NCBI GenBank assembly: GCA_963807575.1 | Contig: CAWECD010000013.1 | Coordinates: forward strand, 113,605-177,604 | Length of the DNA: 64,000 nucleotides | Direction of reading: 5' to 3' | DNA from: an uncultured Acidimicrobiaceae bacterium | GTDB lineage: Bacteria; Actinomycetota; Acidimicrobiia; Acidimicrobiales; Bog-793 | Shown: positions 24,512 through 62,614 of the stretch, one piece after another | Position numbering within the stretch: the first letter of the stretch is position 1 | Layout of the letters: each line of letters opens with the position of its first letter | Notes under the pieces: generated by a model | Told to the model about the DNA's origin: nothing | The model's input: only the letters and a program-made list of their open reading frames with translations | Database searches by the model: none | Program-made: the position numbers and the translations under genes

Positions 24512-25392
24512 CTCGCTCCTCCACTCCGGCTGCCTGACGCGGGCATGGCTTCGGCCGGCGCTTCGCGCTGGTCCATCCTCGTGTCCGAGGAGTGCACCGG
24601 GACAAGGCGACTGTCCTCGTAGATCTGGCCGTCGCGCAGCCGGACGATCCGACGCGCAAAAGAGGCGATGTCCTGTTCATGGGTGATGATCACGACTGTT
24701 CGGCCTTCGCGGTTCAGTCGACTGAAGATGGCCATGACCTCGTTGCTCGAGGCGGTGTCGAGGTTCCCGGTCGGCTCGTCGGCGAGGATGAGAGCAGGAG
24801 CCGTCACCAGGGCGCGGGCAATGGCGACGCGCTGCTGCTGACCACCGGACATCTCGCTCGGGAGATGATGGCTACGGTCCTCGAGGCCGACCTCGCGCAG
24901 CGCGGCCATGGCCCGCGCGTGCCGTTCCTTCGGCTTCACACCTCCGTAAGCCAGTGCGAGCTCCACGTTCGCCAGGGCGGTTGTGCGCGGGACCAGGTTG
25001 TAGTTCTGAAAAACGAAGCCGATCTTGCGGTTGCGGATGCGCGAGAGATCCGAGTCCTCGAGCTGGCGTACGTCCACGCCCTCCAACCAGTAGTAACCCC
25101 TCGTCGGCACGTCGAGGCACCCGATGATGTTCATCATCGTCGACTTCCCGGAGCCTGAGGCCCCCATGATGGCGACGAAATCGCCGGCCTCGACGCTCAG
25201 GGAGACCCGTCGCAGCGCATGAACTTCGACCTCCCCCGCCTTGTAGGTCTTCGTCACCGCCCGCAGCACGACGACTGGTCGTCTCCCTCCTGTGGGGAGC
25301 GGGCCCGCCGGGGCCGCAGTGACTCGAGATGGCAGGGCACGGAGGCCGTCAAGCGATTTGTCACGGTGGCCGAAGAACTGTCGAGGGCTCAT
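24508..25392 (-). CDS. ABC transporter ATP-binding protein (MacB/LolD-type)
   Basis: It has Walker A GASGSGKST, signature SGGQQQRVAIARAL and Walker B LILADEPTGNLD. Start and stop overlap the neighbouring genes. Confidence 0.9.
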   Translation of the reverse strand: MSPRQFFGHRDKSLDGLRALPSRVTAAPAGPLPTGGRRPVVVLRAVTKTYKAGEVEVHALRRVSLSVEAGDFVAIMGASGSGKSTMMNIIGCLDVPTRGYYWLEGVDVRQLEDSDLSRIRNRKIGFVFQNYNLVPRTTALANVELALAYGGVKPKERHARAMAALREVGLEDRSHHLPSEMSGGQQQRVAIARALVTAPALILADEPTGNLDTASSNEVMAIFSRLNREGRTVVIITHEQDIASFARRIVRLRDGQIYEDSRLVPVHSSDTRMDQREAPAEAMPASGSRSGGAS

Positions 25393-28894: not shown

Positions 28895-31543
28895 CTACAG
28901 CGGGAAGAGCGTCTGGGTTGCCGCAAAGTCCGTCAGGCTGCCGGTGGCGTACACCGCGTTTGCAGTGGAGCTCGTCGCAGGAGCGGTGTAGATGATGCTC
29001 GCACTTGCCGTACTAGCCGCGAAGGCTCCAGTCAGGGTCAGCACGGCGCCCACCGTTGAGCAGCCGGTGGCCACACCACCGCTGCTCACACCCTGGTAGT
29101 AGTACACGAAGTCGGCGTCAGCACCTGTTACCGGGCAGGTCACGGCCTCGCTGTAGGTGATGGCTATTGACGGCGCGGTTACGACCGCTGACACCATGGC
29201 CGGCACCGGCGCTGCCCCTAGCGCAAATGTCTGCGTTGCCGGGAACTGCGGGAAGACGTTGGTCGCGTGCACCTCGGTCGCAACGGCGGGCGCCGCAGGA
29301 GAGGTGTACACGAGCGTGTCTGTAGCGCCTGGCAGGACCAGAGTCGCTGCTATGGCGCCCGTAGTCGTGGTCATGAACGACGAAAGCGTCAGCGTGTTGT
29401 TGGCGTGCGCCGTGCACACAGACGGGTAGGCGGGGCTACCACCATTGCTGTACACAAACTCCGACTGAAGCGCGGTACCGCAAACCATGGTGTCGCCCGT
29501 GGTGTAAGTAACAAGGATCGAGCCGCTGGCACCAGGTGTCACGACCGCCGCCGTAATGGCCGGCGTCGACCACGCGCTCAGTGTCTGCGATGCGGCATAG
29601 AGCGCCGGTACCGAGCCGGTCGCGGATACCGATGCCGTTGAGCTGTTCGTCGCAGGAGCGGTGTAGACGATGTTCGCACCAGTCCCTGGCGGTTCGACGC
29701 CTGCCGCATCGGTCAGGGTCAGCACGTCAGCCGCACACGCGGCGGTGACGGTCGGCGCCCCTTCAAATCCGGACGCCACACCTGTGTAGTCGTACGCGAA
29801 GGCGGCAGGAACCGTACCCGCTGGGTCGCAGGTCACGCCTTCGTTGTACGTGATCACGAGCGTTGTCGCGGTCGTGTACGCCGACACCATGGCCGGCAGC
29901 GCCGCTGCCGTCACCGCGAGCGTCTGCGTTGCCGCAAACTCCGTCGCGTTGCTCGTGGCATACGCCGCGTTCGAACTGCTGCTCGCCGCAGGAGCGGTGT
30001 ACACGATGCTGCCACCAGTACTCCCTGGCAGGGTGAAGCCGGCTCCAGTCAGGGTCAGCACGTCACCGGACGTTGTACAGCTGTTGGCAGTGATCGTGCC
30101 ACCGGACGCTGAACCAGTCCAGTAGTACGCGAAGTCGCTGGAAGCAGCTGTCGGGCAGGACACGCCCTCGTTGTAGGTGATCGCGATTGATGTGGCGGTC
30201 ACGGCCGCGGACACCATGATCGGCCCAGCGGTCGAAGCCGTGAAGTACCCGAAGACGTCGATCGCGAGGTTGATCGTCGCACCGTGGCTGTTGTAGACAT
30301 CCACGTTGCCAGTACCGGCCGTGTCAGCGATCGTGAAGTTCGGGACGATCTCGTTGGCAACCCAGTTGAGGTCAGAGGCGACAGGGTTCGTCGCGGCGGA
30401 CGTCGGGTAAACCGTGAGGTAGCCAGCGGAATTGCCAGCAACCACCGTGAAGTTGGCCGCCACGGCAGCCGCGTTGGCGGGGATCCCGCTGGCGGCAGTC
30501 GCTAGGTTGAAGCTCGCCGATGCGTTCGCCGCGATCGGCGTCCCGGTACCTACCAAGCTGGCCGTGCGGGTATCGGCCACGCGGACCGGTGTGATCGGCA
30601 CGAAGTATGAGCCGGTGCCACCGCTGCCGGTGTAGTAGCCGTCGACGTCAACGTCAACGTTCACCGTGCCGGTGTGGTTGTAGACCTCGATCTGGCCGCT
30701 GGTGCCGACTCCGACCGTCACGCGGTTCGCGACGGCCTGTCCGGCCACGAAGTTGACGTTCGACGCGGTCGGCACAGGGGTCACGCCGGCCGGGTAGACG
30801 GTGAGGTAGCTCGCCGCCGTCCCGTGAGCGGCAGTCACGTTGACCACAACGGCGGTCGCGGTCGCAGGAACGGTCTCAGTTGCAGACAGAGCCCCTGTCA
30901 CTGTGACGGGCACGCTCGTGTTCGCCGCGATCGGTGCGCCCAACTGGAGGTTGCCAAGAGCACGCACAGGCGACATCGAGTTGTACAGCCCGCTGCCATT
31001 GGTCGACGGAGTGCTCGTGTAATAGCCATCCACGTCAACCACGACGTTCGTGCTGCCGGCATGGTTGAAGATCGACACCATGCCTGTAGAACTGAGCGGC
31101 ACAGTCACGAGGTTCGCCACGACCACGCCAGGCGTGAAGTTGAGGTTGGAGACAGTCGGCATAGTGATACCCGCGGGGAACACGGTAAGGAACCCGGAGG
31201 CCGTCGGGCTAACCGCTGTCACGTTGAGCACAGCTGCCGACGCTCCGGCAGGTACGGTGCCTAACCCGGTGACCTGCACATTCAGCATGGCGCCGGCGGC
31301 AAGGGTCCCGCCCGCGTTCGGCTGCCCGGAGTTCGCCCGAGTATCGGTGATGCGGAAGGGTGTCACTGGGACATAGGTGCCCATGACGGGCGCCGTCGCG
31401 TGTGGCGTAGTCGTAGCCGAAGCGGCTAGCGCGAGCGGGCCGAGGAGCATACCGAGAGCGGCAACGAGCGCCGTCGCCAGCCGGATCGGCATACGCCTAC
31501 CCGCCTTCTCGCCCATCGAGCCGTCACGAGATGATCTGAACAT
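28895..31543 (-). CDS. Large secreted repeat protein, paralogue 2 (4 N-terminal repeats + 4 SbsA-type Ig-like domains)
   Basis: 882 aa from the ATG at 31543, with RBS GGAGAGAAG. The track start is 31609. It has a signal peptide (MPIRLATALVAALGMLLGPLALAASA) and the same N-terminal module as paralogue 1. Four ~105-aa domains follow (I.YNEGV.CP...F.Y...G......C.....LTLTG....P......IVYTAPA), each with two Cys. Confidence 0.85.
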   Translation of the reverse strand: MFRSSRDGSMGEKAGRRMPIRLATALVAALGMLLGPLALAASATTTPHATAPVMGTYVPVTPFRITDTRANSGQPNAGGTLAAGAMLNVQVTGLGTVPAGASAAVLNVTAVSPTASGFLTVFPAGITMPTVSNLNFTPGVVVANLVTVPLSSTGMVSIFNHAGSTNVVVDVDGYYTSTPSTNGSGLYNSMSPVRALGNLQLGAPIAANTSVPVTVTGALSATETVPATATAVVVNVTAAHGTAASYLTVYPAGVTPVPTASNVNFVAGQAVANRVTVGVGTSGQIEVYNHTGTVNVDVDVDGYYTGSGGTGSYFVPITPVRVADTRTASLVGTGTPIAANASASFNLATAASGIPANAAAVAANFTVVAGNSAGYLTVYPTSAATNPVASDLNWVANEIVPNFTIADTAGTGNVDVYNSHGATINLAIDVFGYFTASTAGPIMVSAAVTATSIAITYNEGVSCPTAASSDFAYYWTGSASGGTITANSCTTSGDVLTLTGAGFTLPGSTGGSIVYTAPAASSSSNAAYATSNATEFAATQTLAVTAAALPAMVSAYTTATTLVITYNEGVTCDPAGTVPAAFAYDYTGVASGFEGAPTVTAACAADVLTLTDAAGVEPPGTGANIVYTAPATNSSTASVSATGSVPALYAASQTLSAWSTPAITAAVVTPGASGSILVTYTTGDTMVCGTALQSEFVYSNGGSPAYPSVCTAHANNTLTLSSFMTTTTGAIAATLVLPGATDTLVYTSPAAPAVATEVHATNVFPQFPATQTFALGAAPVPAMVSAVVTAPSIAITYSEAVTCPVTGADADFVYYYQGVSSGGVATGCSTVGAVLTLTGAFAASTASASIIYTAPATSSTANAVYATGSLTDFAATQTLFPL

Positions 31544-32105
31544 TCGCTTCTCTCCATTTCCAGGATTACTGCGTCTGTCTGAGCTGTCGCATGGCCCCTG
31601 TCTGACCACAACCGACCGCGCAAGCGACCAGCATCTAACCTAACCGCTCAATACAAATGGCCGGCACCTCTGCGCTCAGCCAGGTGACACGCTCCCCCCG
31701 GTTCTCGCCTCGTTCTGCACTGTTACAAGGAAGGATGGAACTCTCACAAGCTCTGGTCGGAAGCTCATGACGCGGTGAGCCACAGGTCAACTTCAGGCCG
31801 CTGACCCCCATTGTCGACGTTGGTGAAAGCCTTCATGAGTCACACCCAGTCTGAGCAGTCGTCCACCTGAACTCCGAGCGACTCATCGAGGTTGCACTCG
31901 GCTCGTGCATCACCACGGTCTGAGCACCGAGGCGTTCCTCGCGACGGCCGGAGTCCTGCTCTCTTGGGCGCACGGTCTCCCGGTTCCAGTGGATAACTTG
32001 CTCGCCGCCTATGGCACCAACGTGGTCCCCGCATTGACAGAGGTCGGCACGACCCTCGAACTGCTCAGCCGACTGGACCCACCCCGTCGCTAGGACCGGA
32101 GCGTC

Positions 32106-32824: not shown

Positions 32825-35800
32825 TTAGTCACTCACCTTCAGGCTGAAGCTGGTCAGCACCACCCCGTCCGTCACTGACAGCGTGTCAGGCGTAGTGCCA
32901 GCAGCCGTAGTGGTGTAGGTGAACGCTGCGTAACCGGCCACAAGTGCCAACGTGCCCGCACCCGCAGACAAACTGGAGGTGCTCCCGGTCCCTTCAGCGA
33001 CCGCCACGTCCACGGTGGGCGTTCCGGCCAGCACAAAGTTGCCGTATTCATCGACGAGCTGAACAGCCAGGTAGAACGTGTGCAAGCCCTCAGTGGTTGG
33101 GTCCGTGAAGACCTGCGCCGTTGTCCACGGTCCACCAGCGGAGACGAAGGGCACACTTCCAACGGTGCCGGCGTCGAGGTACGTCCCGGCGGAAATGTCA
33201 GAGTTGATGATCTCGCCGTAGGCAGCAGTTGCTGCTGTCGGGAAGACCGTCTCCGTGTTCGACGCATAGCCATTGACCGTGAACACAAGGCCCTGAGACG
33301 CGGCGTCGAAAAGCGTGACCGACACAGGTGCCACCCCACCAGTGAACGTCACCGTTGTGGGTACGACAGCCGGGGTGCCGTTCGGTGACGCAAACTGCCC
33401 GGTCACCGTGACGGCGAACCTCGCGGCGAGCGTAGGCACGCCGCCATGGTTGGTGTCGATGATGCAGGTGCCGCACGGCGACGCAAACTGCCCGGTCACC
33501 GTGACGGCGAACGTCCCGGCGAGCGTCGGCGCGCCGTTCATGGTCAACGTCCCGGTGTCGGCAGCTCCAGCAACAGGAGCAAGGCCAACAGCAGCCGTCA
33601 AGTTCAACCCAGCCGCAAACTCCAACGGGCCGAGCGTCTGCGTTGCCGCAAAGACCGTCGTGCTACCGGTCGGGGTCACCGCGTTCGACGCCGTCGGCGC
33701 CGCAGGCTCGGTGTAGACGATGGTGGCACTTGGCTGTGCGCCAGTAAAGGCCCCGGCCAGGGTCAGAATCTCACCGGACGTTGTACAGCCGGTGGCCGTA
33801 CCGCCCAGAGAGGCACCCTGGTAGTCGTACACGAAGTCGGCGTCAGCACCCGTTGCCGGGCAGGTCACGGGCGCGTTGTAGATGATCGCGATTGATGTCG
33901 CGCTCACGGTCGCCGAAACCATCTCCGGAGCCGTCGCCGCGCCAATCACGAAGGTCTGCGCTGCCGCGAACTGCGGGTAGTTGATAGTTGCGGTCACCGC
34001 GTACACAGCACTGTTTGTCGCAGGAACGGTGTACACAATCGTGTCCGTAGCGAGCGGCAGGGACAGAGTCGCTGCCGTGGAACCCGTCGCCGAGGTCATG
34101 AAGCCACCCAGCGTCAGTATGTCTCCAGCCGCGCTGCACGTTGTCGGGTAGGCAGGGCTACCAACGTTGCTGTACACGAGGTCCGCCTGAACGCTGCCCT
34201 GGGTAGTCGGGCAGGCCACGGGCTCGCCGTAGGTGACAGCGATCGTCCCCGCCGCCGCGCTGACGGTCGCCGCCGTAATGGTCGGCGTCGTCCAAACGGT
34301 GAGCGTCTGACTTATCGCGTACACGTAACCGGTCCCGGTCGCGTACACCGATGTTCCAGGCGCAGGGTCAGGAGTACCGCTCACCGAAGGCTCGGTGTAG
34401 ACGATGCTGGCAGGAAGCGACGGTGGATCGGCAGCGGCCAGACTCAGAGTCAGCGTGTCAGTGCCAAGCCCACCCGGCGCGCACCCTGTGACCGCGTCGG
34501 TCGCTGCGCCAGTCCAGTAGTAGGTGAAAGTGCCAAAAGCCGGGCAGATCACGTCCTCGTTGTAGGTGACCACGACCGTTGGCCCCGCTGTGCTGTACAC
34601 CGCCGACACCATGGTCGGCACTGCTGCTGCCGCCAACGCGAGTGTCTGCGTTGGCGAGAACAACGATGTGTTGCTGGTGGCGTAGACCGAAATCAACGTG
34701 CTGTCCGCGACCGCGGGGGTCCGGCCAGCACCTGCGGTGTAGGTGAGGGTGCCACCAGTGCTGCCTGGCAGGATGAAGGTTCCGGACAGGACCAGCTCAT
34801 CAGCGTTCGTTGCGGACGTTATGCAACCGGTGACCGCGCCACCCGACGCTGAACCAGTCCAGTCGTAGGCAAAGGCGCCATCAGCACCAACTGCCGGGCA
34901 GGACGCGCCCTGGTTGTAGGTGATCGTGATCGAGTTGGCTGCCACAACCGCCGACACCATGATCGGCCCACTGCTGAAGGGCATGAAGTACCCGAAGACG
35001 TCGACCACGAGGTTGATCGTCCCGTAGCTGTTGTAGACCTCGACGGCTCCCGTGCCGTTCGTGTCCGCGATGGTGAAGTTCGGGACAATGTCGCCGGCAA
35101 CCCAGTTCTCGCTAGAAGCGACGGGGTGCGTCGTGGTGGCTGCCGGGTAGACCGACAGGTAGCCGGAAGTCGCGCCTGCAACCACCGTGAAGTTGGCCGC
35201 AACCGAAGTGGCAGTCGCGGGGATACCGCTGGCGGTGGTGGCGAGGGTGAAGCTCTCCGAGGCGTTCGCCGCGAGCGGCGTCCCGGTGCCTACAAGGCTG
35301 GCCGTACGGGTGTCGGCCACGCGGACCGGCGTGATCGGCACGTAGTACGAACCGGTGCCACCGGCGGCGGTGTAGTAGCCGTCCACGTCGACATCGACGT
35401 CAACGGTTCCGGCGTGGTTGTAGACCTCGATCACTCCGCCGGTGCCGACTGCGACCGTCACGCGGTTGCAAACAACCGCACCAGCCGCGAAGTTGACGTT
35501 CGAGAACGTCGGCGCCGTCGTTAGCGCCGGTGCCGGGTAGACGCTGAGGAAGCTCGACGCATTCCCGTGGGCCGCAGTCACGTTGACCACGACAGCGATC
35601 GCGCTGGCGGGAACGCCGGTAACAGTCCCCGTCACTGTGACGGGCACGCTGGTGTTCGCCGCAACCGGTGCGCCGACGGCGAGGGTGCCGAGAGCACGCA
35701 CGGGGCTAATCGAGTTGTACAGGCCGTAGCCGGTGGTCGAAGGAGTGCTCGTGTAGTAGCCCTCCACGTCAACCACGACGTCGACGTCAGTGCCCGAGCT

Positions 35801-36292
35801 GTAGATCGACACCCCGCCTGTGGCGCTCAGCGCCGTTGTCACGAGGTTGGCCACGTTCTGACCAGCGACGTAGTTGAGGTTGGAGACCAGCGGCAGCGTG
35901 GTTCCCTCGGGGTAGACGGTCAGGAAGCCGGAAGACTGCGGGCCAACGGCGGTGACGTTGAGCACCACTGCCGACGCTGTGGCCGGTACGGGCGCGGTGC
36001 CCACCCCGGTGACTTGCACATTCAGCGTGGGGGCGGCGGTGGTAAGGGTCGTCCCTGCGTTCGGAAGGCCGGAGCCAGTCCGCGTGTCGGTGATACGGAA
36101 GGGTGTTACTGGGACATAGGTGCCCATCACGGCTGTCGTCGCGTGCGGCAGGGCTGCGGCCGAAGCCGAGGTGGCTAATGCGAGTGGTCCGAGGAGCAGA
36201 CCAGTAGCGGCAATTAAGGCCGTCCCGAGCCGGATCGGCATGCGCCTACCCGTCTTCTCCTCCGTCGGGCCTTCACGGGATGACCTAAGCAT
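32825..36292 (-). CDS. Large secreted repeat protein, paralogue 3 (paralogue-2 architecture + ~300-aa extra C-terminal Ig-like region)
   Basis: 1155 aa from the ATG at 36292, with RBS GGAGATGGAGGAAG. The track start is 36415. It is collinear with paralogue 2 through the signal peptide, four N-terminal repeats and four Cys-pair domains. Additional domains follow (FAVTVTGQFASP duplicated, then VQLVDEYGNFV, invasin/Big_1-like). Confidence 0.85.
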   Translation of the reverse strand: MLRSSREGPTEEKTGRRMPIRLGTALIAATGLLLGPLALATSASAAALPHATTAVMGTYVPVTPFRITDTRTGSGLPNAGTTLTTAAPTLNVQVTGVGTAPVPATASAVVLNVTAVGPQSSGFLTVYPEGTTLPLVSNLNYVAGQNVANLVTTALSATGGVSIYSSGTDVDVVVDVEGYYTSTPSTTGYGLYNSISPVRALGTLAVGAPVAANTSVPVTVTGTVTGVPASAIAVVVNVTAAHGNASSFLSVYPAPALTTAPTFSNVNFAAGAVVCNRVTVAVGTGGVIEVYNHAGTVDVDVDVDGYYTAAGGTGSYYVPITPVRVADTRTASLVGTGTPLAANASESFTLATTASGIPATATSVAANFTVVAGATSGYLSVYPAATTTHPVASSENWVAGDIVPNFTIADTNGTGAVEVYNSYGTINLVVDVFGYFMPFSSGPIMVSAVVAANSITITYNQGASCPAVGADGAFAYDWTGSASGGAVTGCITSATNADELVLSGTFILPGSTGGTLTYTAGAGRTPAVADSTLISVYATSNTSLFSPTQTLALAAAAVPTMVSAVYSTAGPTVVVTYNEDVICPAFGTFTYYWTGAATDAVTGCAPGGLGTDTLTLSLAAADPPSLPASIVYTEPSVSGTPDPAPGTSVYATGTGYVYAISQTLTVWTTPTITAATVSAAAGTIAVTYGEPVACPTTQGSVQADLVYSNVGSPAYPTTCSAAGDILTLGGFMTSATGSTAATLSLPLATDTIVYTVPATNSAVYAVTATINYPQFAAAQTFVIGAATAPEMVSATVSATSIAIIYNAPVTCPATGADADFVYDYQGASLGGTATGCTTSGEILTLAGAFTGAQPSATIVYTEPAAPTASNAVTPTGSTTVFAATQTLGPLEFAAGLNLTAAVGLAPVAGAADTGTLTMNGAPTLAGTFAVTVTGQFASPCGTCIIDTNHGGVPTLAARFAVTVTGQFASPNGTPAVVPTTVTFTGGVAPVSVTLFDAASQGLVFTVNGYASNTETVFPTAATAAYGEIINSDISAGTYLDAGTVGSVPFVSAGGPWTTAQVFTDPTTEGLHTFYLAVQLVDEYGNFVLAGTPTVDVAVAEGTGSTSSLSAGAGTLALVAGYAAFTYTTTAAGTTPDTLSVTDGVVLTSFSLKVSD

Positions 36293-36778
36293 ACTTTCTT
36301 CCTCCATCTCCAGGGTTCCTGCGTATTTCTGTACCGTCGTGTGGCACTTGTCGGACCACAGCCAACGGAACAAACCTATCACAGCCCAGCCGATACCACT
36401 CGATACATGGAACAAGTTGAAGCTAGTTGCTCACGTGGCAGGAGTCAAGCTTACTGACATATCCCTCATGACCGCCACCTGCTGTGAAGCCTCCCGCCGG
36501 GGTTGGTGGTCTCTGTCACTCCCATACTAGTCTGCGCCGCTGCACAAGCAACGGCAGAGTCCAAGGTACCGACCGGTTCCGCGCGTATTCGCGCATCCCC
36601 GGTCGCGACGCGTCGGTGCGCATCAGGCTCCTTGACACGGCGCGGCTGCGGCCCGTCGCGCCTATCGTGTGAGGCGGGACCGGGGCGCGGCCCTGGTTGG
36701 GACTGGTCACGACCCGACGTCGTCTCGTCGAGTTCCGGGAAGCCACTGCGGCGATGCTTCACCGCAGGGCGAGCGGGC

Positions 36779-38764
36779 TCAGGAGCCCGCACCTCGCCGG
36801 TCGCCCCGGACCAGGGTCACAAGGGCGCGTAGTGGAGCGGTCAGCCGCCAGAACTCCGAGGCGAGCAGCTCGTCGCGGACCTGCTCTGCCTCTTGTGCGC
36901 GATGTTCGAGCTGGGCGACCCGGAGGGCAAGCTCTCCGGTCCGGTCGCTCTCGGCGTGCAGGCGCTCCACCTCGAGGTGCAGGGTCTCCTGAGCCGCGGC
37001 GAGCGCAGCTCTCACCTCGTCGAGTGCGCGGTCAACCTCTACTCGATGTGCCTCGTGCGCCCGCTTCAGGCCGTCATTGCCCACGAGCAGGGCGACCTCT
37101 GTGGCGCTGCCCGGCGGGAGGAGCAGCGGCGCGCTGTCAAGGCCGGCGAGCATTCGCAGGTGTTCGCCCTCCCGCGCCCTGGGCGGGGTGGCCGTGCTCG
37201 TCGTGCCGGCGTCGTCCCAGCGCAGCTGGATCGAGGTCACGTGCCCGGTGTCTTCGACGCCGACGACCAACGCCGCCCGCACCACGAAGTCCCAAGCGGT
37301 ACAAGACGGGAGCTGCTCGTCAAACCGGAGGTGCATCTCGGACACGAGCGACCGGGACACCGCGATACTCGAGATCGGGGTCGCGTCCGTCGCCAGGTTG
37401 GAGATCACGCCAAAACGTTCCCCGAACTCCTTGAGCGGTTTTGTCAGCGTCACCGCCGATGCTCCCATCGCCCCCTCCTCGGGGGCGCGTCGGCGGACGT
37501 GGCGCGCAAAGCAGACCGAGCGGACGAGCTTGCCCGGGGCCCGGCCCGCGCCCTCGGCAAAGCGCTCCGCCCAGTCCGCGGTGACAAGGTCGTCGTCGTC
37601 CAAGAACGCGACATAGCGCCCCCGGGCAAGCGCCAGTCCCGCGTTGAGGGCTTCGGCCTCGTTCCCGGCGCCGACCTGCCCACCGCTGACCTTCTCGACG
37701 CGGACTCGGGAGGCGAAACCCTCCTCGAAGCTGTTCACGACCGCGCCCGAGGACTCGAGGGCCCCGGGATCTCCGCCGTGCACGAGGACGATGACCTCGA
37801 GGTCCTCGAAGCTCTGAGCGGCAAGGCACGTCAGCGCCTCTGCGAGCATCGACGGGCGCGTCCCGTCGGTTCTGATAAGCACCGAGAGGAACGGGCAACC
37901 GATCGCCACAGCCTCGGCCTGGGCACCTTCCGGCGCCGGCTGCGGTGAAAGCCGATCGGGCGCCGACGGATGCTCGATGAGACGGTAGGCCCGCACGAAC
38001 TGATTGACGGTCATGTAGGGGTCGGCCGCGGATCGCAGCGACCGGAGGTGATCGTGAACCGGCCCTCCCTCGACCAGGAAGGGGTGCTCGAGGGGGAACC
38101 ACTGGTCCGAGTGCTCCATGGTGAAGTCGTCGCGGCCGCACTCGCTCCAGCCGAACCGCCCGAGCTCGGCACCCACCCGCTGCTCTGTGAACATCTGCAG
38201 GTGGGTCCGGTCCAACAGACCGCTCGGGGTCACGTCCCACCGGCCGCCGACGAGCTTGGCGCCGAGGTCGAAATGCGCCACGTTCGGGATGCTCGTCACC
38301 AGGAGCGGGGCGTCGCTCCCGTCCGACGCGAGTGCCCAAAACAGCTCGGCAAGCTCGCTGAGCACGGCCGGCGGGTCGGGCAGGTGCTCGATGATGTCGA
38401 GCATCATCACCGCACCGACCGGACGCCCTGCGAGGACATCTGTGAGCTTGGCGACAAGACCCTCACCCATCGCGAGGTCGACCACATGGCTCTCGAGCCC
38501 CCGCGAGACGACATCGGCGACAGCGTCCGGGTCCCGGTCGGCGCCCACGTAGTCCCACCCCGCGTCACGGAGCACCTCGCCGACCGCTGCATAACCGCAG
38601 CCGAGATCGAGGACGACGCCGCGTCGGGCGTGGCGCTCGACGAGACGCACCGCGCTGCCGTACGGGCCCTCCCACGAAAAGGAGAAACGGTACGTCGCAA
38701 CGTGCTGCGGCCCCGCGCTCTCCCGGGCCGCACCCTCCCCGGGCTCAGAAGCGGTGCTCGGCAT
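36779..38764 (-). CDS. Fusion protein: class I SAM methyltransferase + family 2 glycosyltransferase + C-terminal coiled coil
   Basis: 661 aa from the ATG at 38764, overlapping the upstream stop by 20 nt. The track start is 38938. The MT motif is VVLDLGCGYAAVG. The GT2 motifs are FLSVLIRTDG...LTCLAAQSFEDLEVIV and YVAFLDDDDL. The ~110-aa coiled coil ends in SEFWRLTAPLR. Confidence 0.8.
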   Translation of the reverse strand: MPSTASEPGEGAARESAGPQHVATYRFSFSWEGPYGSAVRLVERHARRGVVLDLGCGYAAVGEVLRDAGWDYVGADRDPDAVADVVSRGLESHVVDLAMGEGLVAKLTDVLAGRPVGAVMMLDIIEHLPDPPAVLSELAELFWALASDGSDAPLLVTSIPNVAHFDLGAKLVGGRWDVTPSGLLDRTHLQMFTEQRVGAELGRFGWSECGRDDFTMEHSDQWFPLEHPFLVEGGPVHDHLRSLRSAADPYMTVNQFVRAYRLIEHPSAPDRLSPQPAPEGAQAEAVAIGCPFLSVLIRTDGTRPSMLAEALTCLAAQSFEDLEVIVLVHGGDPGALESSGAVVNSFEEGFASRVRVEKVSGGQVGAGNEAEALNAGLALARGRYVAFLDDDDLVTADWAERFAEGAGRAPGKLVRSVCFARHVRRRAPEEGAMGASAVTLTKPLKEFGERFGVISNLATDATPISSIAVSRSLVSEMHLRFDEQLPSCTAWDFVVRAALVVGVEDTGHVTSIQLRWDDAGTTSTATPPRAREGEHLRMLAGLDSAPLLLPPGSATEVALLVGNDGLKRAHEAHRVEVDRALDEVRAALAAAQETLHLEVERLHAESDRTGELALRVAQLEHRAQEAEQVRDELLASEFWRLTAPLRALVTLVRGDRRGAGS

Positions 38765-39695
38765 ACTCCCCCTCGCGGAAGAAGACGACTGAGGCGACTG
38801 CCTCCGGGGAGAGGCCGAGCGCTTCGCGGTAAGTGGCGGGGAGCACCCCTTCGGACTGCCTGCGCAGGAATTCCGCCGCCGCTTCGCGATGCAGCTCGCT
38901 GCCGTGGACCTCCGCCCACTGCAACCACTCCTCCACAAAGTCGGGCCTCTCCGCCCGGTGCCCGAGCAGCAGGCGAGCCAGCACGGCGTGATATTCCTCC
39001 TCCTCGCTCGGTGCGGGAAAGCCCGTCAACTTGAGCTCTTTGTCGTGGAAGACAGTCGCCTCCGGCACGTGGCGCACACGTAGGCCGCTCAGGCGGACTC
39101 GCCAGGAAAGGTCCACGTCGTCACCGTGAAGGAAGAACGCCGGCTCGAACCCGCCCAGAGCTTCGAAGACCGATGCCCTCATTGCCATGAGGCAGCCGCT
39201 CGCCCATGGAGTGTCACCCGTCACCGGGTCGAACGCCTTCGGGTGCTCGAGTGGGATCTGGCGCGCCTCGGCAATGCCGACGGTGTCGTCGTCGAGCACG
39301 CCGAGCAGTGTTGCCAAGCAGTTCGGCGACAGGTACGTGTCAGGGTTGAGCAGTACCAGGACGTCGCGCTCGCCGCCGGTGCCGGGCGCCCCCGCCGCCC
39401 GCTTCGCGAGAAGGTTCTGACCGGCACCATGGCCCGTGTTGGTCATGAAGGCGACGTAATCGAGCGAGATGCCGGCCCTGTCGAGGATCTCGCGGGCCTC
39501 GCCAAGAACCTCCTGGGCGACCAGGGCATCGGGCCCCTCGGGACCACCGCAGTCACCGATCGCCACCGTCGACACCACGTCGCCAGTCGCCTCGCCCAAG
39601 TGGCGGGATGCGGCCGTCACCGATCTCAGCATCCGCAACAGGCCACCCGGCTCCCCCCCGTAGCGGACCGTCTGGACCCGCAACGCCGTCACCAT
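38745..39695 (-). CDS. Family 2 glycosyltransferase (WbbL/RfbF-like)
   Basis: 316 aa from the ATG at 39695. Motifs are LVLLNPDTYL and FFLHGDDVDLSWRVRLSG. The first ~314 aa of track ORF 38745..40637 are an Arg-rich alternate-frame reading of the upstream repeat array and are rejected. Confidence 0.8.
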   Translation of the reverse strand: MVTALRVQTVRYGGEPGGLLRMLRSVTAASRHLGEATGDVVSTVAIGDCGGPEGPDALVAQEVLGEAREILDRAGISLDYVAFMTNTGHGAGQNLLAKRAAGAPGTGGERDVLVLLNPDTYLSPNCLATLLGVLDDDTVGIAEARQIPLEHPKAFDPVTGDTPWASGCLMAMRASVFEALGGFEPAFFLHGDDVDLSWRVRLSGLRVRHVPEATVFHDKELKLTGFPAPSEEEEYHAVLARLLLGHRAERPDFVEEWLQWAEVHGSELHREAAAEFLRRQSEGVLPATYREALGLSPEAVASVVFFREGEYAEHRF

Positions 39696-39703
39696 CGCGT
39701 TCG

Positions 39704-42055
39704 TCAACTGGAGCGTTGGCGGTACGAGTCGACAAGCCGCATCGCGACGCGAAGCGGGACCGTCGCCTTCCAGCTCTTGGAGGACTCGAACTCGGAACGG
39801 ACACTGGCTTCCGCTTGTCTGACGGCCTCCTCCAGGCGTGCGAGCGCGGCGTCGCGTTCGGCAGCGGCGGCCTGGGCGCGCGCCTCCGCCTCGCGCCACT
39901 CGACGATCTTCGCCTCGGCAACGGCGGTGACCTCCGCGGCACGTTGCTCGGCGAGGACGACACGCTGCTCGGCAAACGCCACACGCTCTTGGGCAAGAGC
40001 CACGCTCTGTTCGGAGACAACCGCGCTCTGCTCGGCGACGGCCGCGTGCTGTTCTGCGGCGGCGACGCGCTCCTCGGCAAACGCGACGCGCTCTTCGGCG
40101 GCGGCCACGCGCTGCTCGGCAAACACGACGCGCTCTTCCGCGAGAGCCGCGCTCTGCTGGGCGACAACTGCGCTCTGTTCGGCGACGGCCGCCCTCTGCT
40201 CGGCAACATCCACGCCCTGTACGGCAACTGCCGTGCCCTGCACGGCTACTGCCGCACCCTGCTCGGCGACGGCCACGCGCTGCTCGGCGACGGCCACGTG
40301 CTGCTCGGCGACGGCCGCTTGGCGCTCGGCAACCTTCACCTGCCGCTCGGCGACGGCCGTCTGCCGCTTGGCGACGGCCGCGCGCTGCTCGGCAACAGCG
40401 AGCAGCTTCTCCGCCGCCTCCACCCGCGCCAACAGCTGGCCTTTCTCGACCCACAGGTCCGCGACCTCCGTGGTCGCGCTCGCAAGGGAGTCCTTCGCCA
40501 GGTCCAGGTCCTTCTCCAGCTGCGCGACCTTGTTCGCCGTGATCTCCATCTGCGTGAGCCTGCTCACCGTCCCGGGTGGGACGAGGAGAGGCCTGGAGTC
40601 GAACCGGCCCCGTATGGACCACGTCGTGATCTCCCACTGCTCCTCAGGATGCTCGAGGTGGGAGGCGTAGCCACGCTTCCATCTCCGGTAGAGCGAGGTC
40701 ACCTCCGGCGTGCTGGCGACACCGCACAGCAGGGCGGCATTCAGCAGCATGTCCCAGTCCTCGAGCACGGCCAGCTCGTCGTCGAAGGACATGCCGAGGT
40801 CCGTGAAGCAGCTGCGCGGGATGGCCACCGAGCAGTTCGGGGTTCTGTTGCCGACCAGGTGAGCGACGAGGTCGAACTCGAGAGGGTACGGGGTCGTGGT
40901 CGAGCCGATCTGGCTATAGCCGGTACCGCACTCCCACGACTCCTCGTCGATCGTGTGCGTGGCACAGCCGGCGCGCACCACAGCGCCGGGATGGAGCTTG
41001 ACGAGCTTCGCGAACTCCTCGACCCAGTGGCACAGAGCAAGATCGTCGTCATCGAGGAAGGCCACGTAGCGACCCGACGCCTTCTCCACACCGACCTGCA
41101 GCGGGCGGGCCCTGCCTCCCCCATCCACGCGGATCGCCCGGGTCTTGTCCACGAGCCAGCGAGGCAGGCGCTCCATCACCTCGACCACCGCCGCGTAGTC
41201 GCTGTCAGCAGTGTCGTGACAGCAGATGATGACCTCGATGTCCCGGTCTGTCTGGGCGGCGAGCGAGGTGAGGTTGTCCTCCAGGGTGATGAGGCGCCGC
41301 CCCTGAGTCCGCACGACCACGCTCAAGAAGGGCGCAGGGGCGAGCGCGGGGGGAGCCGATGAGCCCGGGAGTCGGGCGGCGGTCAGCTGGGGCCGGGCCG
41401 CGGGCAGGTAGGCCCGCACGAAATGGTTGACGAGGGCGCCTGGTGCGCTCTGCTCTCGCACCTCCAACAAGAAGTCGTGCAGAGGTGTGCCCACAGAAAG
41501 TGCTGTCAGGGTGTCAGGGAAGTGCTGGTCGCTCCGGTCGGCGACGAAGTCGTCCGCCTTGATCTCCTTCCAGCCGGCGCGGGAGAGCTCGGCCTCGAGC
41601 CGGCCGGGTGCGAACAAGGAGAGGTGGTGCTCGTCGAGGAGGCCGGCCGGGCTCACGTCCCAGCGCCCAGAGAGCAGCTTGGCGGCGAGGTCGAAGTGCG
41701 AGACATTGGCGACGCTGATGACCAGCGGCGCACCCGCGTGCCTGTTGGCCATGTCGGCCAGTGCGGTGAGGAGCTCACCCGGGCGGGCCAGACGCTCGAT
41801 CACCCCGAGGGCTGTTATGGCAGCGAGCTGGCGACCGGCGAGGACCTCCTCGAGGCGCTCGGCGTCGACTCCACCCGGCTCAACGTCGACTCCGAGGTAC
41901 TCGAGGCCGAGCTCCGCGCATGAAGCGGCGTCAGTGCCAAAGCCGCGTCCGAGGTCGAGGAGCACTCCCTCGTGCAGGGCGTGGGCGGCGAGAAGCCGGA
42001 CGACGTGGTCGTGAACGGTCCCGTCCACGTGGTCGCGTTTGCTGGGCTTGCTCAT
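39704..42055 (-). CDS. Fusion protein: methyltransferase-like domain + family 2 glycosyltransferase + long heptad-repeat coiled coil
   Basis: 783 aa and collinear with the 661-aa paralogue. The N-terminal domain has a degenerate SAM motif (LLDLGRGFG). The GT2 motifs are FLSVVVRTQG...LAAQTDRDIEVII and YVAFLDDDDL. The ~230-aa coiled coil includes 22 tandem heptads, and the C-terminus is SKSWKATVPLR. Confidence 0.8.
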   Translation of the reverse strand: MSKPSKRDHVDGTVHDHVVRLLAAHALHEGVLLDLGRGFGTDAASCAELGLEYLGVDVEPGGVDAERLEEVLAGRQLAAITALGVIERLARPGELLTALADMANRHAGAPLVISVANVSHFDLAAKLLSGRWDVSPAGLLDEHHLSLFAPGRLEAELSRAGWKEIKADDFVADRSDQHFPDTLTALSVGTPLHDFLLEVREQSAPGALVNHFVRAYLPAARPQLTAARLPGSSAPPALAPAPFLSVVVRTQGRRLITLEDNLTSLAAQTDRDIEVIICCHDTADSDYAAVVEVMERLPRWLVDKTRAIRVDGGGRARPLQVGVEKASGRYVAFLDDDDLALCHWVEEFAKLVKLHPGAVVRAGCATHTIDEESWECGTGYSQIGSTTTPYPLEFDLVAHLVGNRTPNCSVAIPRSCFTDLGMSFDDELAVLEDWDMLLNAALLCGVASTPEVTSLYRRWKRGYASHLEHPEEQWEITTWSIRGRFDSRPLLVPPGTVSRLTQMEITANKVAQLEKDLDLAKDSLASATTEVADLWVEKGQLLARVEAAEKLLAVAEQRAAVAKRQTAVAERQVKVAERQAAVAEQHVAVAEQRVAVAEQGAAVAVQGTAVAVQGVDVAEQRAAVAEQSAVVAQQSAALAEERVVFAEQRVAAAEERVAFAEERVAAAEQHAAVAEQSAVVSEQSVALAQERVAFAEQRVVLAEQRAAEVTAVAEAKIVEWREAEARAQAAAAERDAALARLEEAVRQAEASVRSEFESSKSWKATVPLRVAMRLVDSYRQRSS
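39938..40402 (-). repeat. 21-bp tandem repeat array, ~22 units (encodes AVAEQRA-type heptads)
   Basis: Units of the type gctcggcgacggccgcgtgct are visibly periodic. The array is in frame and translates as AVAEQRA AVAKRQT AVAERQV KVAERQA AVAEQHV AVAEQRV ... Confidence 0.85.
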
Positions 42056-42133
42056 GGACGTACCGGTTCGGGTCCTGCGCGGCGACCTTCCGGGGCCGTT
42101 GCGAACGCTCGGGTCGTGCTCATGGGCGAGGCC

Positions 42134-43051
42134 TCACTCGAAGCGGTCGACTGCGTAGGAAGCATCGAGAAAGAAGGCCACCTTCTCCGCGCCGGCGACC
42201 GGCGAGGGCAGGCGGCCCTCCGTTTGGCGTTCCCGGAAGGCCTCGGCAGCCTGGCGTTGCGGCTCGCTCCCGTGCTTGCCGTACCAGGCGAGCCTGTCCT
42301 TGACGCGACCGGGGCCACCGTACTTCCGGCTGAGCAACAGGTCCGCCTCCGCGGCGTAGCGCTCCTGTGCCGGCGAGACGAGCAACGCACCCGAGCTGTC
42401 GAGGCGCTGGTCATGAACTACCCGAGCCGAAGGCCTGTAGGTGCATTGGTAACCGGACAGCCGTAGCCGCCAGGAGTAATCGACGTCGTCACCATCGAGG
42501 AAGAACGACTCGGCGTCGAGGCCACCCAGTTTGGAGAAGAGCTCCGCACGGGTCAGCGCGAACGCCAGTGAGCACCATCCGGTCTCACCTGTCACCGGGT
42601 CGTACGCCTTCGGGTTCTCGAAGGGGAGTTGATGAGCCTCGACGAGCCCGACCTCCGGGCGGCCGACGAGGCCCCGGATCAGCTCTGTCACGGCCATCGG
42701 GCCGGTGACGACATCATCGTTGCAGAGCAGCAGGAGCTCGGAGCCGTTCTGGCTGAAGAGGCGGTTGTGCCCTTCGGCATGACCGAGGTTCTGCCCGAAC
42801 CGCTCGTAGGTGAAGCTCGCGTCACCGTGGGCCAGGGCGGCGCGGAGCGCATCCAGGGTCTTCTTGCTGAGACCGGCCTTCTCCGAGCAGTCGCCGATGG
42901 CGACGACCGTGTCGCCCAAGAGCCCTTCAGCCCGTGCGTTGTGAAGCGACTGGGCGAGAGCCTCGGCATACCTGAGCAGCATGGTCGGAGTGAACGCGTG
43001 CGCGACGGTCTGCACGCGCAGACTGGACCGAGACACCTCGGCTTGCGGCAC
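42134..43051 (-). CDS. Family 2 glycosyltransferase (WbbL/RfbF-like), paralogue of 38745..39695
   Basis: 305 aa. Motifs are LLLCNDDVV and FFLDGDDVDYSWRLRLSG. It aligns along its whole length with the 316-aa GT2. Confidence 0.8.
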   Translation of the reverse strand: MPQAEVSRSSLRVQTVAHAFTPTMLLRYAEALAQSLHNARAEGLLGDTVVAIGDCSEKAGLSKKTLDALRAALAHGDASFTYERFGQNLGHAEGHNRLFSQNGSELLLLCNDDVVTGPMAVTELIRGLVGRPEVGLVEAHQLPFENPKAYDPVTGETGWCSLAFALTRAELFSKLGGLDAESFFLDGDDVDYSWRLRLSGYQCTYRPSARVVHDQRLDSSGALLVSPAQERYAAEADLLLSRKYGGPGRVKDRLAWYGKHGSEPQRQAAEAFRERQTEGRLPSPVAGAEKVAFFLDASYAVDRFE

Positions 43052-43395
43052 GGCACTCCGATCTCCAGAGAACCCCCGGTCCTGTGACGGGGCTCAGCTG
43101 TCGACACTATCTCCGATGCAGCCCCCCGGGTGGCCCAGATCTCCGGCGCAGCCTCCCGGGCGGTCCAGTCGGATCCACGGTCCTCGGAGGCAGTGCCACC
43201 GGCCTGTGCTTCGCTCAGGTCCGCGCCTTTCGGCTACATTGCCTCGGCCTGCTCTGCGGCGCCGAGGGCCGCCATCGAGGGCCGGCACCGGGGGGCCGGT
43301 ATCGACCGCGACGTCCGCCAGGACGCTGCTCCCCGTTGCTATTATTTAGTGCTAAGCTCGACTCCGCCGGGTCACTCTCATCTCAAAGGACGGAC

Positions 43396-44238
43396 ATGCC
43401 GAAGAAGCTGCTGACTCTGCCCCAGGTCGCAGACAGGCTCGGCGTTCACTACATGACCGCCTACCGCTACGTCCGTACCGGCCGGCTCCCCGCCAGGCGT
43501 GTCAAGGGCGCGTGGCAGGTCGACCCGGCGGACCTCGCCTTTGTGGAGCGCTCCAGGCAAGGGACCCGGTCTTCCGGGGCGACAGTCAAAGCCCCGTCCT
43601 GGAAGCGCCTCGAGGCGCGGCTGGTGGCCAGTGACGAAGCCGGGGCGTGGGACGTCCTCGAAGAGGCACTGGCGGCCGGCATGGGGCCGGAAGACGTGCT
43701 CTTGGAGCTCATCGCCCCGGCCTTGCACTCCATTGGGACGCTGTGGGAGGAGGGCGGGCTCACTGTCGCGGATGAACACCGGGCCAGCGCCGTCGCCGCG
43801 CGGCTCATCAGCAGGCTGGGTGCCCGTTTTGCCCGCCGGGGCCACAGGCGGGGAACTGTCGTCCTCGCCGCGCCGCCCGGGGAGCTGCACGGGCTGCCGG
43901 TCTCCATCGCCGCCAACTTGCTGCGGTGGCGGGGATTCGAGGTGGTCGAGCTCGGGGCGGACACACCCCCGGACGCGTTCGCCGAGACCGCGGCAGGCGA
44001 GCCCGGCCTCCTGGCCGTGGGGATCGCATGCACCACGAGCAGCTCCGCCCGGGCGGTGCGCCGAAGCATCGCTGCCCTGCGCCGGGTCGTCCCGCACGTG
44101 CCAGTCCTGCTCGGCGGGGCCGCCATCACCGACGCCGCTCACGCCCGACACCTGGGCGCCGACGTGTTCACCGGCGCGCGTGCCTCCGAGGTCGTGTCCT
44201 CTGTCGAGGCCATCGCCGCCCTCAAGTCCTCGACCTGA
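43396..44238 (+). CDS. HTH (excisionase/MerR-superfamily) + cobalamin B12-binding domain regulator
   Basis: 280 aa from the ATG at 43396, with RBS AAAGGA. The track start is 43084. The N-terminus LTLPQVADRLGVHYMTAYRYVRTGRLPA is HTH_17-like. The middle, LIAPALHSIGTLWEEGGLTVADEHRAS, is B12-binding_2-like. Then comes a Rossmann-like B12-binding fold with PPGELHGLP (His present in a DxHxxG-like position). Confidence 0.75.
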   Translation: MPKKLLTLPQVADRLGVHYMTAYRYVRTGRLPARRVKGAWQVDPADLAFVERSRQGTRSSGATVKAPSWKRLEARLVASDEAGAWDVLEEALAAGMGPEDVLLELIAPALHSIGTLWEEGGLTVADEHRASAVAARLISRLGARFARRGHRRGTVVLAAPPGELHGLPVSIAANLLRWRGFEVVELGADTPPDAFAETAAGEPGLLAVGIACTTSSSARAVRRSIAALRRVVPHVPVLLGGAAITDAAHARHLGADVFTGARASEVVSSVEAIAALKSST

Positions 44239-44340
44239 CGCAACTGCACGCGGCCGCAACGGCGGGCTCAAACTGACGCCTCCGGCGGACAGGGGCGGCA
44301 GACGGCGGCGGCCCGGCGGCGACCCAGCCCTCAATTCTGC

Positions 44341-44796
44341 TTATTCGCGGCACTCCGGGCACAGGCCGAGCAGGTCGAGCTGGTGCTCGGTGACCTGGTA
44401 GCCCTGTTCTTCCGCCACGGCCCGGGCCGCCTCGCCCAGCGCCCGTTCCAACCTCGGAGAAGGGTGGACGTCCTCCACCTTCCCGCACGTCGCACAGACG
44501 AAGTGGTGGTGGTGGCTCGAGAGCTCCTCGGCCAGCTCGAACCGGCCGTGGTCGTCGGCTCCGGCGACCCTGCGCACGACCCCGACATCGATGAGAGCGG
44601 TCATGTTCCTGTAGGCGCTGCTCTGGGGGAGCTCAGGGGCTGACGCGACGATCTCGGGAATGGTGAGCGGCCGCCCGGCCGCCGCCAATGTCTCGACGAG
44701 AACCCTCCGCAGGTGCGTGTACCGCTGGTCCGCACCGGCCAGCCTGAGGCTGACGGCTTCATGGACAGAGCGTGCGATCACCACGGCCGCAGACAT
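44341..44796 (-). CDS. zur: Fur family transcriptional regulator, probably zinc-responsive
   Basis: 151 aa. It has a wHTH (RPLTIPEIVASAPELPQSSAYRNMTALIDVGVV) and the metal-site motifs HHHHFVCATCG and CPEC. It is the last gene of the metal ABC importer operon, and the Zur assignment rests on that context. Confidence 0.75.
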   Translation of the reverse strand: MSAAVVIARSVHEAVSLRLAGADQRYTHLRRVLVETLAAAGRPLTIPEIVASAPELPQSSAYRNMTALIDVGVVRRVAGADDHGRFELAEELSSHHHHFVCATCGKVEDVHPSPRLERALGEAARAVAEEQGYQVTEHQLDLLGLCPECRE

Positions 44797-62596: not shown

Positions 62597-62614
62597 CGGC
62601 TGGCCCCTTGTCGG

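Follow-up and report, generated by a model that had tools for sequence, protein, structure and literature searches.

Within the window, a stretch of 64,000 nucleotides from an uncultured Acidimicrobiaceae bacterium, a gene at 39704..42055 on the minus strand encodes a protein of 783 amino acids (aa) in which a methyltransferase-like (MT-like) domain and a family 2 glycosyltransferase (GT2) domain are followed by a predicted helical stalk and a basic tail, an architecture that we read from the open reading frame (ORF), its translation, Pfam matches, codon composition and homologues. Part of the stalk is encoded by an in-frame tandem array of 21-bp units, and counts of these units in public data from related strains range from 16 to 33 and can differ even at 99% identity. 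By analogy with known systems, we propose that this array is the hypervariable part of a stalk acting as an enzymatic ruler for the GT2 head, a reading to which we assign a probability of roughly 0.45.

The array occupies 39938..40399 on the minus strand (aa 553-706), where 22 units of 21 bp are translated in frame into heptads with the consensus AVAEQRA. Tandem Repeats Finder placed a period-21 array of 21.4 copies and 71% matches at 39945..40393, and the nested 42-, 63- and 147-bp periods that it also reported describe this same array. In-register DNA identity at a lag of 21 was 0.714, compared with 0.372 +/- 0.022 in codon shuffles (z = 15.5), and identity at lags of 20 and 22 within the array was 0.19. 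Across the 22 units, the first position is A in 16, the second V in 14 (L in 3, F in 3), the third A in 21, the fourth E in 17 and the fifth Q in 15, while the sixth is divided among R (10), S (4), Q (3), G (3) and H (2), and the seventh is mainly V (11) or A (9). Pairwise identity between the DNA units averages 67%, the longest in-register exact match is 19 nt, and units differ 46 times at third codon positions versus 25 and 29 times at the other two. An earlier note on this DNA had described 22 near-perfect heptads starting at 39938 and ending at 40402; the start, the number, the reading frame and the patterned protein stand, whereas the units are only 67% identical as DNA and the end lies one codon too far by translation. 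Long antisense and off-frame ORFs also cross the array, among them 39126..40670 and 39608..41362 on the plus strand, and fail a codon-position GC filter. Among ORFs overlapping the array, the 783-aa gene alone passes this filter, with a GC content at third codon positions (GC3) of 0.85, and the long antisense frames are by-products of the GC-rich repeat.

We searched for homologues at E <= 1e-5 and obtained 237 proteins, the window's own included (236 others). Comparison sequences are mostly metagenome assemblies, and the relatives at 69% identity or above come from metagenome-assembled genomes (MAGs) labelled uncultured Acidimicrobiaceae or Acidimicrobiales from the MFD, SPRUCE and "bog" series. 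The spacer was taken as the interval between two conserved anchors, with either the EDWD motif or the end of the GT2 domain on one side and the C-terminal SW[KR]xTxPLR motif on the other. The difference in spacer length from the window was divisible by 7 in 37 of 40 orthologues at this level of identity, which, together with the range of counts, agrees with the earlier expectation that the array should gain or lose whole heptads and vary between strains. Two of the three exceptions carry an 11-residue sub-repeat, and the third has a local indel. Orthologue arrays hold 16-33 heptads and their spacers span 227-346 aa, with values of 276-346 aa in one of the measured sets.

This variation extends to very close relatives. 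Over 2.2 kb, the window differs from the 99%-identical locus L001 by about a dozen substitutions and, in the interior of the alignment, a single indel, which is exactly one 21-bp unit. Pairwise DNA alignments with L001 and L059 place the unit missing from the window, AVAEEHA, at 40190..40196 on the minus strand (indel ~40193). Because this unit is present not only in L001 and L059 but also in the more distant orthologues P0003, P0004 and L008, the window's 22-heptad allele looks like a derived one-unit deletion. Spacer length differs by 7, 14 or 112 aa in 11 of the 19 pairs (58%) whose ~258-aa GT2 domains are 100% identical, and 65% of pairs at 98-99% GT2 identity also differ. Given that pairs with identical GT2 domains differ in their spacers, copy number changes faster than point substitutions accumulate.

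The operon that contains the 783-aa gene also encodes a paralogue of 661 aa (36779..38764, minus strand), which by its Pfam matches has the same order of MT domain, GT2 domain, coil and tail motif, with intact MT motifs and a short coil of fixed length. The paralogue's spacer has a constant 83 aa in five related loci as well as in the window, and measures 80 aa in a sister clade; the earlier note, which gave ~110 aa for the coil at this place, was right that it is non-repetitive. Distant members of the family, drawn from several phyla, cluster at a distance of 119 aa from EDWD motif to tail. Because the paralogue spacer is constant and the distant relatives cluster tightly, length variability is specific to the stalk of the 783-aa protein. 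The sister clade (54-58% identity; loci L015 and L016; P0044-P0051) carries 11-residue repeats, ADRRVAEITAE, at the same site, and the repeat regions of its two genomes differ in length by 22 aa. By our own assignment, which places V, I, T and A on the hendecad positions a, d, e and h, this repeat suits a coiled coil. In three members of the clade (P0046, P0047 and P0050), the tail motif is immediately preceded by an additional tract of 4-residue repeats (QVTARVTAQVTARVTEQV).

The earlier note had read the protein as a fusion of a methyltransferase and a glycosyltransferase, and the matches bear this out, with Methyltransf_23 and Glycos_transf_2 assigned by Pfam to one chain and a long helical C-terminal region in our structural model. 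This model is an AlphaFold2 (AF2) monomer prediction from a 41-sequence alignment, with a mean predicted local distance difference test score (pLDDT) of 77. The GT2 domain (aa ~242-486; 40598..41332, minus strand) has a GT-A fold and appears intact: its pLDDT is ~95, compared with moderate values for the MT-like domain, Glycos_transf_2 (PF00535) matches aa 247-375 at 38.4 bits against a cut-off of 23.3, and residues D334-D337, an acidic motif of the DxD type that binds metal or nucleotide, and E431-D432-W433 are invariant in the 41 sequences. The best PDB matches in Foldseek were GT-A enzymes of the GT2 family, namely AvpGT (9jma), the chondroitin polymerase K4CP, RmlT, TarP and SpsA, at E values of 1e-12 to 1e-10. 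When searched by sequence against the PDB, the 783-aa protein gave generic MT and GT2 matches only and otherwise weak coiled-coil noise, including tropomyosin, P22 gp26 and a designed coil.

The MT-like domain (aa 17-163; 41567..42007, minus strand) is probably degenerate. Its Methyltransf_23 match scores 28.6 bits against a cut-off of 27, and the protein departs from the features of class I S-adenosylmethionine (SAM) methyltransferases (a GxGxG motif I and a full Rossmann-like sheet, with an acidic residue after beta2 and the beta3 segment). Motif I reads DLGRGFG where at least 90% of the family has GCG, the E-H motif of the family reads E-R, and ~20 aa spanning beta3 are deleted. We compared the MT motifs of the heptad clade with those of short-coil relatives and of the hendecad clade, and found that GCG has become GRG or GSG in the window lineage, that E-R or G-R has replaced the E-H motif in all heptad-clade sequences in which it was located (11 of 15; the pattern missed four), and that the Asp after beta2 is replaced by G, A or S in 10 of 13. 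In L001 an inserted C (window ~41919, L001 ~10050) severs the first 47 residues, SAM motif I among them, and the L059 alignment indicates the same insertion near codon 47; apparently common to both, it reflects either a genuine frameshift of their lineage or the same sequencing error in each. From these motifs, the MT-like domain of the long-stalk lineage appears to be a decaying pseudo-enzyme, and the GT2 domain is the only domain of the 783-aa protein that looks intact. Any activity that the stalk positions would thus be that of the GT2 head.

Between the GT2 domain and the tail, the AF2 model predicts a helical stalk of ~262 aa (aa 495-756; 39788..40573, minus strand; helices H495-603 and H623-756 by DSSP), longer than the ~230-aa coiled coil of the earlier description. 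Ahead of the array, aa 500-552 show a canonical hydrophobic period of 3.45 residues. If heptad position 7 (V/A) is taken as a and position 3 (A) as d, the array has a core of small residues, with E at e and mostly R, Q or H at g; the pairing of E at e with R at g is the classical inter-helix salt-bridge pattern of parallel coils. We predict that the stalk is most likely a parallel coiled coil. We rejected a single alpha-helix (ER/K) domain, given that the consensus has no i/i+4 network of Glu with Arg or Lys and has a high Ala/Val content. A secreted repeat antigen was also considered, the sole points against it being the two nucleotide-dependent enzyme domains, which are expected to be cytoplasmic.

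The protein ends in a conserved basic tail (SKSWKATVPLRVAMRLVDSYRQRSS; 39707..39787, minus strand), in which S760, W761, P766 and R768 are invariant or nearly so among the 41 family sequences from several phyla. The window's tail has a net charge of +5 and a helical hydrophobic moment of 0.38, and AF2 predicts a helix at aa 759-781. In the 13 family members tested, net charge was always positive (+3 to +10), and the hydrophobic moment was 0.33-0.62 in 12, with P0117 as the exception at 0.05. Such features are typical of a peripheral membrane anchor or of a specific docking peptide, and the probable docking site of the tail is the membrane's cytoplasmic face or a partner bound to the membrane. 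By analogy, the tail would parallel the C-terminal region of WbdD, which combines a membrane-associated amphipathic helix with a site for polymerase recruitment (PMC11231755).

Taken as a ruler, the stalk would link the N-terminal head, with its intact GT2 and decayed MT-like domains, to this conserved amphipathic tail. Unequal recombination or slippage between 21-bp units, or between blocks of two, three or more, would add or remove whole heptads, and each heptad would shift the distance between head and tail by ~1 nm while leaving the helical register intact. As a fully extended helix of 227-346 residues at ~1.5 A each, the stalk would hold the GT2 head ~34-51 nm from the docked tail, where it could cap or decorate only those lipid-linked glycan chains that are long enough to reach it. 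Near the membrane, the work would fall to the short-stalk paralogue and the operon's two small GT2-like partners, and strains would differ in the length or decoration pattern of their glycans.

Several observations weigh against this proposal, beginning with the variation itself. Whole-heptad steps follow mechanically from a 21-bp unit and alone do not prove selection on length, and the 112-aa difference between P0036 and P0037 falls between duplicated blocks of ~40 aa, where it could reflect either recombination or assembly collapse. One alternative is that the differences in copy number are artefacts of metagenome assembly or sequencing and that the true array is fixed. Large length differences do fall between near-identical blocks, database versions of five arrays (P0029, P0030, P0038, P0040 and P0057) contain frameshifts, and the extra unit of L059 is 20 nt rather than 21, a 1-nt loss that is most simply a sequencing error. 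However, units that are just ~67-71% identical make the collapse of a single unit unlikely, and different whole-heptad counts are found in MFD, SPRUCE and bog MAG representatives alike. Moreover, the 22-heptad allele occurs in the window and in the independent contig P0039 and the 23-heptad allele in samples L001 and L059, each therefore in two independent assemblies. We consider a fixed array very improbable.

A second alternative accepts the variation and denies it a function: the stalk would be an oligomerisation linker that tolerates changes in length, and the unstable 21-bp array would drift while the glycan product stayed the same. The paralogue and the short-coil relatives manage without a long stalk, the decaying MT-like domain and the +1 frameshift near codon 47 in sister strains hint at relaxed constraint, and repeat mutation yields whole-unit steps whether or not there is selection. 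Such drift sits less easily with an array that stays in frame and free of proline in the window and in eight heptad-clade loci, down to ~69% identity, or with a heptad pattern that persists despite 67% identity between DNA units, with differences most frequent at third codon positions. In addition, two clades have expanded different helix-compatible repeats at one site, and the GT2 domain, the tail motif and the structure of the operon are conserved. Neutral expansion strikes us as somewhat unlikely, and it is the alternative to which we give the most weight.

Further points against the proposal concern the shape of the stalk. Hydrophobic periodicity in the array is dominated by 7 rather than 3.5, because four apolar positions (7, 1, 2 and 3) alternate with three polar ones, and bulky V, L or F occupies the nominal c position, making the heptad non-canonical and not a textbook coiled coil. 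AF2 confidence is low in the array, where pLDDT drops under 50 for aa 599-628 and the helix is interrupted over aa 604-622. The break falls in the Gly-containing heptads AVAEQGA, AVAVQGT, AVAVQGV and DVAEQRA (aa 595-622; 40190..40273, minus strand), which may form a hinge or stutter in the stalk, and 33 of the 37 arrays measured contain a hinge-like motif, [QE][GSA][VI][DE][VL] (for example VQGVD or QAVEL).

Such a break is compatible with a fold-back hairpin, and it is possible that the stalk forms an antiparallel arm, either a hairpin or a four-helix dimerisation arm turning at the Gly heptads, that brings the tail near the head and leaves stalk length without the role of a ruler. Apart from the predicted break in the conserved VQG heptads, this arrangement is favored by the V/L/F residues at position 2, which form another hydrophobic stripe facing away from the Ala/Val stripe, and by the designed antiparallel coiled coil 9rgx, to which the sequence has a weak match. 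However, the flanks of the hinge motif are unbalanced and uncorrelated, with 46-74 aa before it and 94-157 aa after, and the motif is missing from 4 of the 37 arrays. AF2 monomer models commonly fold long helices back on themselves, and the flanking segments and the short-coil relatives look like ordinary coils of the parallel type. We therefore regard a fold-back arm as improbable.

The remaining points against the proposal concern its fit to O-antigen systems dependent on an ATP-binding cassette (ABC) transporter, the logic from which the earlier note had argued. A Pfam scan of the 54 window ORFs gave no Wzm/Wzt, sugar-nucleotide or initiating-transferase gene, and matches to ABC2_membrane or Wzt_C were found neither in these ORFs nor within 10 kb in the loci of close orthologues. 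Because the MT motifs of the 783-aa protein are degenerate while those of the paralogue remain intact, a WbdD-style methyl cap added by the 783-aa protein is also unlikely. Distant short-coil relatives, which lie in Wzm/Wzt loci, support this logic for the family, whereas such genes are lacking from the window ORFs and the analogy with a methyl terminator of the WbdD type fails for the 783-aa protein.

In the wider family, Wzm homologues lie within 10 kb of the MT-GT2 gene in 8 independent loci. Two loci of proteobacterial type, one of them labelled Rhodanobacter, carry an epimerase, a small GT2-like protein and a short-coil MT-GT2 protein within an O-polysaccharide cluster that also contains Wzm (ABC2_membrane), Wzt with a Wzt_C domain, rmlBADC, Acyl_transf_3, flanking etf genes and Cys_Met_Meta_PP (metB-type). 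In one of the O-polysaccharide loci, L003, the MT-GT2 protein bears the only methyltransferase domain listed. The Wzt_C domain reads the terminal cap in the E. coli O9a system. Since Wzt_C reads caps and L003 has a single MT domain, a terminator role is plausible, by analogy, for the MT-GT2 family. Other Acidimicrobiaceae have a short-coil relative that adjoins a YfhO-like GT-C protein instead. The Rhodanobacter-type loci resemble the wxo locus of Xanthomonas oryzae, where wxoA-wxoB-wxoC-wxoD-wzt-wzm lie between metB and etfA, in gene order only (PMC524487).

Variable heptads and coiled-coil rulers each have precedents. The rulers of WbdD and WbbB were established through engineered insertions and deletions, and FutA/FutB is to our knowledge the sole natural ruler with a variable number of heptads. 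In NeuO, the polysialic acid O-acetyltransferase of the E. coli K1 prophage CUS-3, the N-terminal heptads are encoded by tandem repeats of variable number; with units of 7 nt, a change in copy number there also alters the reading frame (phase variation), whereas the unit of the 783-aa gene is 21 bp. Phase-variable O-acetylation is described in PMC3046976.

FutA/FutB of Helicobacter pylori provides a closer precedent than either WbdD or WbbB. These enzymes have a glycosyltransferase head followed by 1-17 tandem heptads and then C-terminal amphipathic helices, their heptad number varies within and between strains via slippage or recombination, and it correlates with the size of the O-chains that are Lewis-glycosylated, which led to the terms molecular and enzymatic ruler (PMC2583950). 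The 783-aa protein likewise has tandem in-frame heptads between a catalytic domain and a C-terminal amphipathic helix, and its heptad number is polymorphic in close strains (22 vs 23 at 99% identity). It differs in its head, which is GT2/GT-A, with no fucosyltransferase among its Pfam, NCBIfam, PDB-sequence or Foldseek matches, and in its 16-33 heptads across the heptad clade, compared with the published 1-17 (PMC2583950). It also differs in its Ala/Val-rich AVAEQRA unit, its extra MT-like domain, its conserved small-GT partner and its monoderm Acidimicrobiaceae host. The 783-aa protein is thus an analogue of FutA/FutB and not a member of that family.

In WbdD (E. coli O9a; K. pneumoniae O3 and O5), the length of the coil sets the length of the O-antigen (PMC5082667, PMC11231755). 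WbdD has an N-terminal head with a class I MT-type domain, an extended coil and a C-terminus that associates with the membrane (PMC11231755, PMC5082667), an order matched by the head, the predicted coil and the putatively membrane-docking tail of the 783-aa protein. Unlike WbdD, the 783-aa protein has a GT2 domain in place of the kinase domain and a hypervariable tandem coil rather than one of fixed length, and no WbdD chain appeared among its PDB sequence matches at E <= 1 or among the top 50 Foldseek matches listed. WbbB (K. pneumoniae O12; Raoultella terrigena) and ORF6(O7) of K. pneumoniae O7, in which an N-terminal MT precedes the coil (PMC11231755), also unite glycan-assembly modules and a coiled-coil spacer in one chain. 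In those two proteins, however, the coil lies between a terminator at the N-terminus and polymerase GT modules at the C-terminus, whereas both catalytic domains of the 783-aa protein are N-terminal and only the 25-aa tail follows its coil.

The 783-aa gene is the second of four co-directional, closely packed genes at 36779..43051 on the minus strand. The first encodes a small GT2-like protein of 305 aa (42134..43051, minus strand; weak GT2 Pfam matches) and lies 78 bp upstream of the 783-aa gene. A second small GT2-like protein, of 316 aa (38745..39695, minus strand; Glyco_tranf_2_3 in Pfam), starts 8 bp after the stop codon of the 783-aa gene, and its gene overlaps that of the 661-aa paralogue by 20 bp. 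The two small proteins are 40% identical and the 783-aa and 661-aa proteins 37%, and we read the four-gene operon, from these sequence identities, as a two-gene module that was duplicated in tandem long ago. Nearly every one of the ~45 family loci has a small GT2-like homologue, mostly directly adjoining the MT-GT2 gene. NCBIfam gave no specific family name for any of the four operon genes or for the neighboring large proteins.

Upstream of the operon and divergent from it, a gene at 43084..44238 on the plus strand encodes a regulator with B12-binding and helix-turn-helix (HTH_17) domains by Pfam, and L001, L007 and L059 have the four-gene block and the regulator in the same arrangement. We presume that the regulator resembles light-responsive regulators of the LitR/CarH type, and control of the operon by light or cobalamin is possible. 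In L001 (2594..7672) and L007 (2685..7744), a block of five genes lies between Fur and the B12 regulator and is absent from the window (44238..44341). It encodes a short-chain dehydrogenase, a polyketide cyclase-like protein, an amino-oxidase/desaturase, a fourth protein (DUF1365 in L007; no Pfam match in L001) and a cyclopropane-fatty-acid-synthase-like protein.

The only exporter near the operon is a MacB-type ABC system downstream of it (23297..27593, minus strand), composed of an FtsX/MacB_PCD permease, an ATPase and a 734-aa HlyD-like protein, and it is not of the Wzm/Wzt type. Directly downstream of the operon, three very large proteins rich in Ala, Thr, Val and Gly (32825..36415, 28895..31609 and 19984..22566, all minus strand) gave no Pfam or NCBIfam match, and these could be targets of glycosylation. 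The 1196-aa downstream protein has an apparent N-terminal signal peptide, judged by eye. The orthologous locus L007 lacks this protein, and there the operon is immediately followed by a 904-aa protein of unknown type. Elsewhere in the window, two adjoining radical SAM/SPASM proteins (61409..63907, minus strand), one with a terminal SEC-C motif, are maybe a peptide-maturation pair and unrelated to the operon, and a DDE transposase (DDE_Tnp_1_4; 2253..3662, minus strand) lies near the left end of the window.

A more ambitious version of the ruler would combine these genes into a glycan assembly line with two heights in a monoderm actinobacterium, in which the fixed short-stalk MT-GT2 enzyme works at the membrane and the long-stalk enzyme 34-51 nm away from it. 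Recombination within the 21-bp array would keep producing strains that differ in surface-glycan length or capping distance, and such a stalk would have evolved twice at one site, from heptads in one clade and hendecads in its sister. We hold this version to be doubtful. If true, the array would be a built-in generator of diversity in surface glycans, for example against phages or for interactions with the peat matrix.

The principle of a repeat-tuned ruler is already known from FutA/FutB. What is new is its candidate occurrence in an unrelated GT2 family with a WbdD-like topology, a conserved two-gene module and much longer arrays, as well as the fixed-length paralogue in the same operon, the parallel expansion of hendecads in a sister clade, and the setting in uncultured Actinomycetota of peat and soil. 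Public metagenomes hold a natural allelic series of 16-33 heptads in a GT2 enzyme unrelated to FutA/FutB, and the paralogue provides an internal control for the variability of the stalk. Should length prove to have no effect, the array would be a clean case of neutral expansion of a coiled-coil repeat. If, instead, stalk length sets glycan length, these alleles would be ready natural variants for glyco-engineering and for testing models of the ruler. The principle would then also apply in uncultured soil Actinomycetota, and evolution would have arrived more than once at repeats as a means of tuning glycan size.

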